Part shown: piece after piece, positions 22,939-32,866 of the stretch
How positions within the stretch are numbered: position 1 is the first letter of the stretch
Layout of the letters: every line of letters starts with the position of its first letter
Source of the DNA: Candidatus Hydrogenedentota bacterium
GTDB lineage: Bacteria; Hydrogenedentota; Hydrogenedentia; Hydrogenedentales; CAITNO01
Direction of reading: 5' to 3'
DNA: 64,000 nucleotides
Assembly (NCBI GenBank): GCA_012730105.1
Contig: JAAYBJ010000278.1
Location: forward strand, 444-64,443
The notes under the pieces: model-generated
The model's database searches: none
Seen by the model: the letters and a program-made list of their open reading frames with translations, nothing else
Told to the model about the DNA's origin: nothing
Position numbers and translations under genes: made by a program

Positions 22939-25900
22939 ATGATTTTCAGTCGTGTCTCACCGACTAAGGGGAAACGTATTCTTCTTTCAGTCATGATGCT
23001 TCCCCTGTTCATGGCAGTGATTTTGGGGGTTTCAGCCTCCAGACTCCCCTTGGAAGCGGCCGTACCCGCGGAACCTGCCGTATCGGCGACGGCTTTGGTG
23101 TATGGCGTAGGGGAGAGTACTGTTTATTCAGAAATTCCGGAAAAGAAACAGACGCTGCGTCGCCGCGAGGTTATTGTAGACAAAAGCGTATTGGAATCGG
23201 ATGCGTTTGTGACGGGAGAAAGCACCGTCACGTTCCTCCTTTTCGACGATCTTCTTTTGTCAGGTGTTTTAGAGCGTGAATCCTCGCCCATGCCCGGCGT
23301 GCGAAACTGTTCCGGCCGCATTCTGGAAAAAGAACATGGATATTTCTCTTTCTCCTTTGATGATGCGGGACGTTCCCTGACGCAGATCGAAGTGCTGGAA
23401 GACAGAATCGCCTATATTATTTCCGAGGATACTTTAAGCGGCAATTATTATGTTGTTGAACTTCCCTTGGATCAGGTACACACCGCCGCGTCCTATGCCC
23501 CCTTGTCCGCGCCCGTGCCCGAAAGTGGCGATGATCTCGTCGCGATGGAAGAGAACGATTCTTCGGCGGGAATAGATGTATTGGTGGCGTATACCCCGGA
23601 AGCGGAAGCCTGGGCGGACGCGAACCGTTCCGGAATTGCCAATGTGCTCGCCCAGTCCCTGGAACGGGCAAATCAAACTTTTGCCGACAGTGAAGTCGAT
23701 CTTAGGTTACGTTTGGTGTTGGCTGCGCCCGTGGCGTATCAGGAAAGCGGTGACGCGAACACGGATTTGTTCCGGGCTACCTTTTCGGCGGACTTTGATC
23801 CGGACGGATTGGATACCGAAGGGGCATTGGATGAACTGCAGGAATGGCGCGAATCCTGTGGGGCTGATCTGGTGGTATTGATGACGGCCGGCGCCAACGG
23901 GGCCGCGTGGCTCATGAAGGATCCGGCTGGTGATGCGCGCTATGGTTTTTCCGTGGTGCCCGTACAGAATGCGGATGTCGCGCTGGTCCGTCAGACGGGT
24001 TACAATCTGGGCTGCAATAACAGCCGGAATCAACAGGAGAATCCCGCGGCGGAAGAGGGCGGGCTGTACGATTTCTCAACGGGCGCGCGATGGGTTGGGG
24101 ACGATGGGCAGGGCTATGCCTCCATTATGACCTGTCCGGAAGGTGATCTCCAGGTATTTCTTTTTTCCAACCCGGAGATCAACTTTGCCGGTGTGCCGAC
24201 CGGTGCCTATGATGGGCCCGGCGCCCCGGCGGACAATGCCCGGAGCCTGAGGGCCGCCATGGCCCGCGTGGCCGCGTACCGGGAGGAAAAGACGCCCGAA
24301 GAAGGTGAAGGTGGGCCGGAGGAAGGGGAATCCGCGGAATCGGATAACCAAAACGAAGACGATAAGGATGGGGAGAGCATTTCGGAGAAGACAGGTGCGT
24401 CCGATGCCGCAATGGATAAGGCGGTCGCTGAACCGCGCATTTATATTTTCGGCGGCACCTACGGTTATACCGGCGAGGACCCGCTGGGATTTGACAAGTT
24501 GCTTGCGGATAACGTGTACAAGATGACAACTTCTCCCCCGGCGGGTCACGTGTGGGAGTCGAAGTCCTATAATTCCGAGTTTGGATATCGGGCGGGGCAC
24601 GCCAACATTGTGAATAGCCAAGGGCTCTGGCTGCTCGGCGGTTTCTCCAACATTGCCGCGTCTCCCGACCGCAATGAAATATGGTTGCTTAAAGCGAATG
24701 ACGAGACCTGGGAGAGAAGGGTTACCTATGCGGCTTGGGAGGGGCGCCGTGGACATACCGCTCTCTTCTTCGACGGCAAGGCGTGGCTGTTGGGCGGCTA
24801 TCGGGCAAAAACATCGACATCCGAAGAAAAATTTTACAACGATGTGTTCTACTCCGGCGATGTCATGACCTGGACCCAAAAGACAGCCGCTGCGAACTGG
24901 GCCGCACGGACCTACCATACATCTGCGGTCTTTGACGGGAAAATGTATGTCATGGGCGGCGCGGCAAAAGATACCGAAGGCAGCCTTGCGCGCTTTGACG
25001 ACATTTGGTATTCCGAGGATGGCGGCAACTGGACTCAGGAGACACCGGGAACACACTGGTCACCCCGGTATGGACATACCTCTGTCGTGTTTGAAATTAC
25101 ACCCGGACAACCCCGTATTTTCGTCATGGGCGGCCAGGTGGGCGATGATTTTACGAACAAGAGTTCTTACGCCAACGATGTGTGGTCTTCAGAAGACGGC
25201 ATTAACTGGACTGAAGAAACCGGAAACGCCGGTTGGGCCGGCAGACGCGAGCATGCGTCTGTTGTATATGACGGGAAAATATGGGTGATAGGCGGGTGGT
25301 ACCGTGATGGGGGTACCAGTCATGATCTCAGAGATGTCTGGTATTCCACAAATGGCAGAGACTGGGTGATGGCCGATCCGCAACCGTCGTGGTTCGCCAG
25401 GCGCGGCCTTTCCGCTGCCGTATTCCCCGCGGAAGGAGGAGGCGAAGGTGAAGGTGAAACGGAGGGTGAAGGGCCAACCGAAGGCGAAACCGAAGGTGAA
25501 ACCGAAGAAGTGCCGGCAGCAGATTTGAGCATTGAATCAAAGGTCCGCGACAAAGAGGCATTGCTGCCCCTTCACGACTGGGTGCCCCTGTTCCGCATCG
25601 CCATGTCCTTTGAAGACGACAATCCCGCGCCGCGTTACCTGAAAAGACTGGTATACAGGTTGGTAAACGATGATTCGTTTGATGATGAAAGAGGGCTGAA
25701 TTACCAGGTCATACAGGATCTGGACGCGAGTGATTTGCTTGAGTTCGGTATTTTTAATGACTTCAATGTGGAAGGGGATCAGGCGGGGGTGGCCAGGAAC
25801 GGCAACCTGGACTCGGGGGACGAGTTGCTCTTTTCCTGGGATAGCCACGGATACGACCGGGGAAGACTTCTTACCGCGAATCCTGTGGAAGGCAGCAACC

Positions 25901-32866: not shown

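Follow-up and report, generated by a model that had tools for sequence, protein, structure and literature searches.

We have analyzed a 64-kb stretch of DNA from an uncultured Candidatus Hydrogenedentota bacterium (referred to below as the window; GC content 0.574), with a focus on two neighbouring genes on its forward strand. Gene A (22939-30222, +) encodes a giant exported protein of 2427 amino acids and gene B (30257-32866, +) encodes an exported membrane protein of 869 amino acids. We consider it an even chance that the locus is a derived version of an envelope module specific to the Hydrogenedentota, in which A would be a tail-anchored surface protein that depends on type II secretion and B its dedicated partner. 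The pair is strictly conserved in gene order, is found next to the gsp genes for type II secretion in most of the phylum and is fused in some lineages. In the lineage of the window the linkage to the gsp genes has been lost, and both proteins carry a metzincin-like domain without zinc ligands.

The gene pair and its flanking signals

The two open reading frames (ORFs) span 22885-30222 and 30257-32866. An earlier, sequence-only reading of the same DNA had given protein A a length of 2445 amino acids, which is that of the maximal ORF from the GTG at 22885. However, the conserved start is the ATG at 22939, the position that the reading itself had given; it has the ribosome-binding site AGGAG before it and yields the 2427 residues. 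The region around this start is identical base for base in related species, the ribosome-binding site and the ATG are kept in four species, and the N-terminus MIFSRVSP is conserved in the homologs. The 2427-residue protein is 100% identical to a database protein (P0121) from a metagenome-assembled genome (MAG) of Candidatus Hydrogenedentes. Gene B was assigned on basis of the ORF list and its homologs; GGAAAGGA precedes its ATG, and the gap to the stop codon of A measures 34 bp.

The intergenic region upstream of A (22524-22938, +; 415 bp) was assigned as an AT-rich promoter and leader region by its composition, a promoter match and a four-species alignment. Its GC content is 0.40, and it includes the 300-nt stretch with the highest AT content in the window. 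Within it lie a sigma-70-like promoter whose -10 element is extended (TTGACA-17-(TG)nAATAAT, 22709-22737; 11 of 12 positions match) and an inverted repeat (GATAAT-N9-ATTATC, 22742-22762). The leader of gene A is around 200 nt long and terminates in the ribosome-binding site GGAGTG. In the alignment of the window (22709-22938) with the related loci L005 (9740-10006), L006 (905-1170) and L004 (8010-8285), all four species share the promoter, the TTGTCAAGA block and the ribosome-binding site, whereas the entire inverted repeat and the majority of the leader blocks are limited to the window, L005 and L006. Since this DNA is conserved although the proteins of those species are just ~56-70% identical, we propose that it contains a site for a repressor or activator and a regulated 5' untranslated region. 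As to a riboswitch or another known RNA in the leader, the Rfam search at gathering thresholds matched two tRNAs only.

At the other end of the pair, a hairpin scan located an intrinsic terminator (32882-32923) with a stem of 17 bp, of which 14 are G-C, and a loop of 8 nt. The hairpin separates gene B from a convergent gene for a class II ribonucleotide reductase (32955-35021, -), a neighbour that is also present in L005. The AT-rich leader, the 34-bp spacing and the 17-bp-stem terminator had all been named in the sequence-only reading and stand as described.

Domain structure of the two proteins

Protein A starts with a signal peptide (residues 1-34; 22939-23040, +), read from the sequence as KGKR, a hydrophobic stretch and SAS and conserved in the homologs. 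A poorly conserved N-domain connects it to an inactivated metzincin of the adamalysin/Mep72 type (residues 206-450; 23554-24288, +), which was identified by NCBIfam, a PDB profile search and alignment. The head matches the NCBIfam model of Mep72 over residues 212-484 (E 1.2e-20, with a score under the equivalog cut-off), a profile of the head family retrieved snake-venom adamalysins and ADAM17 as top matches in the PDB (E 1.6e-3), and the homologs of the head carry Pfam Reprolysin_3/4/5. The zinc motif reads RQTGYNLGCNN (23989-24021) and is followed by the Met-turn ASIMTCP (24118-24138). In a sister clade (P0127-P0130) the same columns read HEIGHNLGCHH. The degenerate motif is found in the window and the five closest orthologs of A, some of which retain the third His, and the Met of the Met-turn is invariant in the alignment of the heads. 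On account of the sister-clade alignment and the retained Met-turn, the head of A is a true metzincin homolog that lacks its zinc ligands. The Pfam scan of the window proteins gave no zincin family for A or B, and nothing came back from the PDB when the head of A, its core or B was used as a single-sequence query; the zincin homology is derived from NCBIfam, the alignment to intact homologs, the PDB profile search and fold comparison.

The metzincin is followed by a six-blade Kelch beta-propeller (residues 496-830; 24424-25428, +), which is recognized by PF24681 (E 2.5e-24; 86.3 bits, cut-off 50) and by Kelch_1/2/4/6 (Kelch_1 with 43.1 bits, cut-off 20.1). Five 'hhhhGG' blade motifs were found by regular expression (at residues 501, 563, 669, 727 and 781) and the sixth, KAWLLGG near residue 613, by eye. 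Acidic linkers rich in Glu and Gly flank the propeller on both sides (residues 452-465, 24292-24333, and 832-857, 25432-25509). The remainder of A comprises the part that defines the family. The core or 'stalk' (residues 853-2180; 25495-29478, +) measures ~1,330 residues, has Asp-rich loops such as DLSGDGLADDLDGNGYVDEAD (28117-28179) and is all-beta in an AlphaFold model based on 43 homologs (predicted local distance difference test, pLDDT, 77; predicted template modelling score, pTM, 0.75). Fold comparison described it as an adhesin-like chain of beta-sandwiches; Pfam and PDB sequence searches gave no match for these residues. Two IPT/TIG domains (residues 2181-2375; 29479-30063, +) follow, seen as two stretches of Pfam TIG (E 1.3e-8; 35.2 bits, cut-off 20.9) and by NCBIfam CoaZ_rpt_PGGG.

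The C-terminal tail of A (residues 2376-2427; 30064-30219, +) is tripartite and conserved in the orthologs and in distant giants. It consists of FFGCSP (30103-30120), a spacer ending in GD, a transmembrane (TM) helix (30154-30192) and RRRG (30199-30210), and in the window it reads FFGCSP-(11 residues)-LVLLAALVVLLAV-SG-RRRG. In many lineages a complete CFI-box-CTERM domain (90-96 bits) takes the place of the Cys tail of the giant; in nearly all of the other giant tails the Cys is retained. Known sorting signals (MYXO-CTERM, PEP-CTERM, GlyGly-CTERM and others) were ruled out for the tail of A at the level of hidden Markov models (HMMs), where sub-threshold matches alone appeared, to the PVV-, IPTL-, PID- and PEP-CTERM models and to NF041936, a family of MYXO-CTERM-containing proteins (E 0.13). 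Similar Cys...GD-TM-Arg tails end three non-giant ORFs of 337-713 residues in related loci (L014, 18852-20993; L018, 18901-21030; L009, 13314-14327), which suggests that the tail may be a general sorting tag of the phylum that lies outside the current NCBIfam models.

The family of protein B is named 'CFI-box-CTERM domain-containing protein' by NCBI. Its AlphaFold model, based on 110 homologs, has a pLDDT of 80.8 and a pTM of 0.77. Behind the signal peptide, a nearly invariant FFPKGGF forms the mature N-terminus and leads into an inactivated, matrixin-like domain (residues 28-310; 30338-31186, +), for which fold comparison found the catalytic fold of the matrix metalloproteinases (MMPs) and which was placed in addition by homolog alignment. 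Its motif HHVGQLLGLAY (30899-30931) occupies the columns that read HExxHxxGxxH, followed by an invariant TPLNN, in 56 of the 110 B homologs. The Met-turn is TPTMFP (31058-31075), and its Met, M271, is invariant in the 110 sequences. The Pfam matrixin model PF00413 has no match to the B of the window at E<=1 and is present in some distant homologs with an intact motif.

The MMP-like domain of B is followed by one or more conserved beta domains that close with an invariant MFGD..C509 (residues 313-515; 31193-31801, +), by a disordered Gly-rich and acidic linker (31808-31969, +) and by a helical module (LRAFRD...YYRIAP...) that resembles CFI-box-CTERM and runs into TM helix 1 (residues 581-652; 31997-32212, +). 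The NCBIfam model of this module, NF041770, recognizes residues 581-627 with 42.3 and 44.1 bits (cut-off 40), covering no more than model positions 19-65, the second half of the model. The residues R582, R585 and D586 are invariant in the B homologs; the copy is internal to the 869 residues and has no CFI box (CFIATAAYG). An Arg-rich loop, RLRPRTRGL (32213-32239, +), separates TM helix 1 from a second hydrophobic segment (residues 663-680; 32243-32296, +) that has the architecture of a signal peptide and ends in AFA/GQ, a putative site of signal peptidase I. The pattern of a basic n-region, an h-region and small residues at -3 and -1 (mostly A-x-A) was found at this internal position in 107 of 108 B homologs. 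A cut at A-x-A would expose a free N-terminus beside the next domain (residues 687-803; 32315-32665, +), in which fold comparison found an OB-fold with NTR topology, as in the tissue inhibitors of metalloproteinases (TIMPs). Membership of TIMP/NTR at the sequence level was unsupported, as a profile of the family gave no significant PDB match and a Pfam scan of 30 members no TIMP or NTR match, and the assignment was kept for the fold; one of the 30 weakly matches NtA (E 0.025). According to the model and the alignment, B closes with a disordered acidic segment and a conserved amphipathic C-terminal helix, PLDEYLYYLRGLV (residues 804-869; 32666-32863, +).

Much of this composition had been anticipated by the sequence-only reading. 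For A it had named the reprolysin-like domain, the six-blade propeller, the acidic linkers, the long beta-rich middle region, the two IPT/TIG domains and a tail with the architecture of a sorting signal, and for B the matrixin-like domain, two TM helices late in the protein and an acidic tail; the searches and models agree on each, with the late helices of B hydrophobic and its tail disordered. The absence of zinc ligands from both zincin motifs was likewise correctly seen. It had missed the CFI-like module, the NTR fold with its internal signal peptide, the repeated independent loss of the zinc site of B, the linkage to the gsp genes and the giant-B fusions.

Conservation, gene order and loss of the zinc sites

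With full-length A as query, a homolog search was dominated by Kelch words and gave only 12 proteins. The family was recovered when the core was used by itself, which found 43 further proteins of ~1,650-2,000 residues, and an exhaustive HMMER search of 1.84 billion representatives with the core returned 132 matches. By these matches, the family of the A core is narrow and almost confined to the Hydrogenedentota. More than 149 homologs of B were found, and every one with a named source is labelled Hydrogenedentes. A scan of one genome per species yielded 76 B loci, mostly labelled Hydrogenedentota; around 20 carry other labels ('uncultured Nitrospirales/Nitrospiraceae', 'uncultured bacterium' and one 'Bathyarchaeia'), which we take as issues of labelling or binning. 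Nearly all of the 76 species genomes have a single locus, and the two loci found in each of two MAGs are fragments of one gene. Orthologs of the window pair with 62-90% identity and the same architecture are present in several other assemblies.

The association between the two genes is very general. The sequence-only reading had made their pairing in other genomes a point on which it could fail, and a giant lies directly upstream of B in all 62 species loci that have at least 1.5 kb of upstream DNA. Moreover, in-frame fusions of giant and B exist in L007 (4343-12433), L009 (4109-12445), L038 (2-12370), L039 (5798-12319) and possibly L076, and these fusions fall in two unrelated clades. In L007 and L009 the 34-bp gap is gone and the tail of the giant runs directly, without a stop, into the signal peptide of B. 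The fused topology, with the tail TM helix going from out to in, the Arg cluster inside and the signal peptide going from in to out, mirrors the succession of TM1, Arg loop and TM2 within B itself. It is the invariable adjacency together with the in-frame fusions that leads us to consider A and B as coupled.

A second clear association is with type II secretion, since gspC/D/E/F lie directly downstream of B in 43 of the 61 loci with at least 3 kb of downstream DNA. The 18 loci without this linkage are among those most similar to the B of the window, and both there and in the window B remained with the giant and not with gspC. The ancestral arrangement is one in which the giant and B head the gspCDEFG... 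operon, and the clade of the window lost the linkage. In L006, with a B that is 64% identical, gspF-E-D are located on the opposite strand, ~6 kb downstream of B (17556-21331, -), an arrangement that looks like a stage on the way from a gsp-linked to a separate pair. The only match of a GspE query in the window, an ORF of 578 residues (51505-53241, +), was rejected as a type II gene; it is unrelated, with only a C-terminal MshEN domain (cyclic di-GMP-binding) and without the T2SS-E ATPase domain.

The same gene order could be taken to mean that B is mainly an accessory of type II secretion, with a role in assembly, gating or quality control and an MMP/TIMP-like latch, and that the giant is its most frequent neighbour or one cargo among many, in which case the A and B of the window would have no need to interact. 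We regard this as rather improbable. It would account for the position of B immediately before gspC in 43 of 61 loci and for a length and architecture of B that are far more uniform than those of the giant, and it would fit the neighbours that remodel peptidoglycan. Wherever the pair has left the gsp operon, however, B has stayed with the giant (in the 18 loci and in the window), several genomes fuse the two proteins, and the CFI-box-like module of B is shared with the alternative tails of the giants. With regard to the neighbours, a gene for a TPR protein with an SLT lytic-transglycosylase domain lies on the same strand directly upstream of the giant in L058 (2671-4500), L062 (2378-4573) and L065 (2097-3863), three gsp-linked loci with short giants, and possibly belongs to the same operon as a component that remodels peptidoglycan. 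In the window, a small gene for an M23 peptidase (a peptidoglycan endopeptidase; 21939-22523, +) is found immediately upstream of the promoter region of A.

A comparison of the giants showed that the core, the TIG domains and the tail are shared, whereas the head varies by lineage. The head is a pseudo-zincin with Kelch propeller in the window and a reprolysin with active motif and a beta-helix in the sister clade, and PKD domains occur somewhere in other giants. The size ranges from ~1,650 to more than 4,100 residues, and the core region matches more than once inside the longest members. The earlier notion that both proteins are built around zincin domains is not supported; in A, the zincin and Kelch head is a lineage-specific addition to the shared part.

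The variation of the heads bears on two other explanations. One is that the pair serves in polymorphic cell-cell recognition like TraA/TraB of Myxococcus, for kin recognition or the exchange of outer membrane, with A as a surface receptor that has a variable head and a Cys sorting tag and B as the co-receptor encoded in its operon. The two-gene operon would fit this, as would the swap of head domains between close lineages (Kelch versus beta-helix, with PKD in other giants), the Kelch domain being the least conserved folded part, and the Cys-TM-Arg tail of a type II-linked family, given that TraA relies on MYXO-CTERM, myxosortase and type II secretion (PMC11980579). Nevertheless, A and B are both unrelated in sequence to TraA and to TraB, Pfam shows no OmpA-like domain in B, and the recorded variation of the heads is between species, so that we consider this explanation improbable, and more so than that of a secretion accessory. 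The other is that A is a structural component of the envelope, an S-layer-like coat or sheath exported via type II secretion, with B as anchor or assembly factor and with heads that decorate the layer. One locus per genome in nearly all 76 species genomes, the conservation throughout the phylum of a family almost restricted to it, the strong conserved promoter, Asp-rich loops in the core that are compatible with calcium-stabilised assemblies and the conserved C-terminal anchor are all in line with such a layer. Highly variable heads and lengths from ~1,650 to over 4,100 residues would rather be expected of an adhesin or receptor than of a lattice protein, however, and fold comparison matched the core to no known S-layer protein; we hold the layer to be unlikely, though less so than a secretion accessory, a recognition pair or decay.

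The zinc site of B has been lost repeatedly. More specifically, 54 of the 110 B homologs lack the zinc ligands, and a neighbour-joining tree of B, made with the four zinc-ligand columns masked, implies at least eight independent changes from intact to degenerate, with an intact state at the root. The MMP-like domain is 53% identical among the dead members versus 50% among the intact ones. In A, the pairwise identity of the pseudo-zincin among six orthologs is 73%, versus 72% for the core and 55% for the Kelch propeller, and the domain is not decaying. By these alignments, both inactivated domains are evidently under purifying selection, and catalysis appears dispensable in B. The conservation values fit the suggestion of the sequence-only reading that both domains are pseudo-protease modules rather than proteases. 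A dead B is found in 16 of the 17 readable gsp-unlinked loci versus about six gsp-linked loci; the association is not independent evidence, since the unlinked loci mostly belong to those closest to the B of the window. A joint loss of catalysis in A and B was ruled out by L004 and L008, in which B is dead and the head of A intact, and the losses in A and B are therefore separate events.

Dead zinc sites in both proteins, together with a gsp linkage that was lost across the clade, would also be expected of a decaying remnant, a pair without current function on its way to pseudogenisation. In contrast to that expectation, both reading frames (7.3 kb and 2.6 kb) are intact, the orthologs in several assemblies are 62-90% identical with the same architecture, the pseudo-zincin domains are conserved like the rest of the proteins, and conservation extends to the promoter, the ribosome-binding site and much of the leader. 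Because of this conservation, decay is judged very unlikely.

A proposed type II-linked surface module and related systems

The explanation that we favour for the locus, the tail-anchored giant with its dedicated partner, can be put as follows. A would be exported by the Sec system, processed at its tail and displayed at the surface via the type II system, where its processed C-terminal tag would retain it in the manner of MYXO-CTERM and GlyGly-CTERM proteins. The tail is considered a sorting tag because of its tripartite architecture, the near-invariant Cys, its replacement by CFI-box-CTERM in other lineages and the similar tails of other proteins. B would hold its exported MMP-fold and beta domains in the inner membrane by means of the CFI-box-like helix-TM module, and its internal signal-peptide-like segment would lead out a second exported domain with the TIMP/NTR fold. 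As a membrane-tethered partner, B would bind, mature or release A. In some lineages this would involve MMP-type catalysis, with the TIMP-like domain of B itself as a possible gate. In the lineage of the window, with both zinc sites gone and the pair moved away from the gsp operon, the zincin folds would be binding surfaces only, such that A is an adhesin or receptor with a Kelch/pseudo-zincin head and B a non-catalytic co-receptor or anchor. The physical interaction of A and B, the surface localisation, the dependence on type II secretion and the cleavage of the tail and of the internal site are what we infer from gene order, fusions and domain structure. An outer membrane is suggested by the TamA (Omp85/POTRA; 5202-7049, +) and TamB (7052-11785, +) encoded in the window, a pair that also indicates a module for the assembly of autotransporters or adhesins.

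Several points weigh against this explanation. The window has no type II secretion gene, and for its genome the link is one of homology only; all of the genomes compared are MAGs of an uncultured phylum. The curated sorting-domain HMMs do not match the tail of A, including TIGR03901 (MYXO-CTERM), and no sorting protease of the CPBP type was found among the window ORFs scanned with Pfam. For B, the TIMP/NTR assignment of residues 687-803 holds at the level of the modelled fold only, the domain has no Cys and hence none of the conserved TIMP disulfides nor Cys1, and a weak rival exists in the N-terminal TM and OB region of ComEC in Pfam (ComEC-N, DUF4131; E 0.04).

A further possibility, more speculative than the partnership as such and in our judgement unlikely, is that B is a polyprotein. 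A cut by signal peptidase at A-x-A would give a membrane-tethered MMP-fold subunit with a CFI-box-like tail and a free TIMP/NTR-fold subunit that act as a bacterial MMP-TIMP latch over the display or shedding of the giant, with giant and B forming the dedicated cargo and anchor module of type II secretion in the Hydrogenedentota. The operon would then encode three exported modules in a chain, and the junction of tail TM helix, Arg cluster and signal peptide in the fusions would be the same as that within B. In the lineage of the window the latch would have turned into a binding device only.

The individual domains of A and B are of known kinds. We found no publication on the pair in the literature searched (CFI-box-CTERM, Hydrogenedentes and type II secretion, giant surface proteins, prokaryotic TIMP-like/NTR modules), in line with the opinion of the sequence-only reading that the architecture is undescribed. 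We found none described either for the whole module, the giant core family, the Cys tail or the combination of MMP fold and NTR fold in a single chain with an internal signal peptide; there is a minority chance that the three-module latch is a new mechanism. The Hydrogenedentota are uncultured and have almost no experimentally characterized proteins, and the present analysis defines an apparently single-copy, conserved module among them, with a candidate for the principal cargo of their type II secretion system. The Cys tail, outside the curated models, may be a new sorting signal, and the presence of MMP-like and TIMP-like folds in one bacterial polypeptide bears on the origin of metzincin-inhibitor pairs. 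At least eight losses of the zinc site with the fold kept, plus a separate loss in the neighbouring gene, constitute a natural series of pseudoenzymes. For annotators, the fold alone is no ground for calling A or B proteases.

Elsewhere in the window, adjacent genes that resemble S-adenosylmethionine decarboxylase and deoxyhypusine synthase (37559-39135, +) suggest a homospermidine or polyamine pathway. Four ORFs of 242-595 residues have no Pfam match (18423-20210, +; 35091-35819, +; 39236-40237, -; 43312-44388, +).

Among the systems closest to the proposed one are the MYXO-CTERM surface proteins of Myxococcota, such as TraA with its partner TraB, which are sorted by the myxosortase MrtX and the type II system (PMC11980579; 10.1101/2023.06.07.544157). 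Both have a tripartite tag of Cys, TM helix and Arg-rich end and a genomic tie to type II secretion, and in both cases a large, receptor-like protein and a partner form a two-gene operon. However, the tail of A falls outside the MYXO-CTERM HMM, has a longer spacer that ends in GD and has no CPBP protease found nearby; B is a membrane protein with MMP and NTR folds and not of the OmpA type; and A has a unique core that is almost limited to the Hydrogenedentota. The cargo of GlyGly-CTERM and rhombosortase, e.g. VesB of Vibrio cholerae (PMC12889589; PMC11389362), follows the same concept of Sec export, processing of a C-terminal TM tag in the inner membrane, transport to the surface by type II secretion and retention there. 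The signature motif and presumably the sorting enzyme are different, and VesB is a small, active serine protease without a dedicated partner gene.

With regard to the metzincin folds, the best NCBIfam match of the A head is Mep72 of P. aeruginosa (PMC4334185), and a bacterial metzincin that is genetically coupled to a TIMP-like fold is known from Listeria monocytogenes, where Mtz is secreted and Tim is a TIMP-like lipoprotein (PMC8235301). There too, the similarity to TIMP is one of structure and not of sequence. In contrast to the Listeria pair, which is a phage-derived switch, the MMP fold and the NTR fold of B reside in one polypeptide with a TM hairpin in between, the metzincin site in the window is dead, and the context is that of a giant protein and a type II operon. 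The loss of the site itself has a parallel in inactive metallopeptidase homologs such as the dead ADAMs, which serve as adhesion or receptor proteins, a binding module being the usual fate of pseudopeptidases (review PMC11266112). A resembles these in having an adamalysin-type fold that appears to be under purifying selection after the loss of HExxH, within a multidomain extracellular protein that presumably binds a ligand; it differs in being bacterial, in the combination with a Kelch propeller and a novel stalk, and in the second, unrelated pseudo-metzincin next door.

Two further comparisons concern the anchoring of B and the control of the giant. B scores above the cut-off of the CFI-box-CTERM model and a full copy of that domain closes the giants of other lineages, whereas the copy in B is internal, lacks the CFI box and is followed by a second exported domain. 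To our knowledge, CFI-box-CTERM (NF041770) is a putative C-terminal anchoring or sorting domain without a published function. In the LapA/LapG/LapD system of Pseudomonas, the giant adhesin depends on type I secretion and LapG is a cysteine protease. We know of no homology of these proteins to A or B, but the logic is the same, in that a dedicated envelope protease encoded nearby controls the retention and release of a giant surface adhesin.

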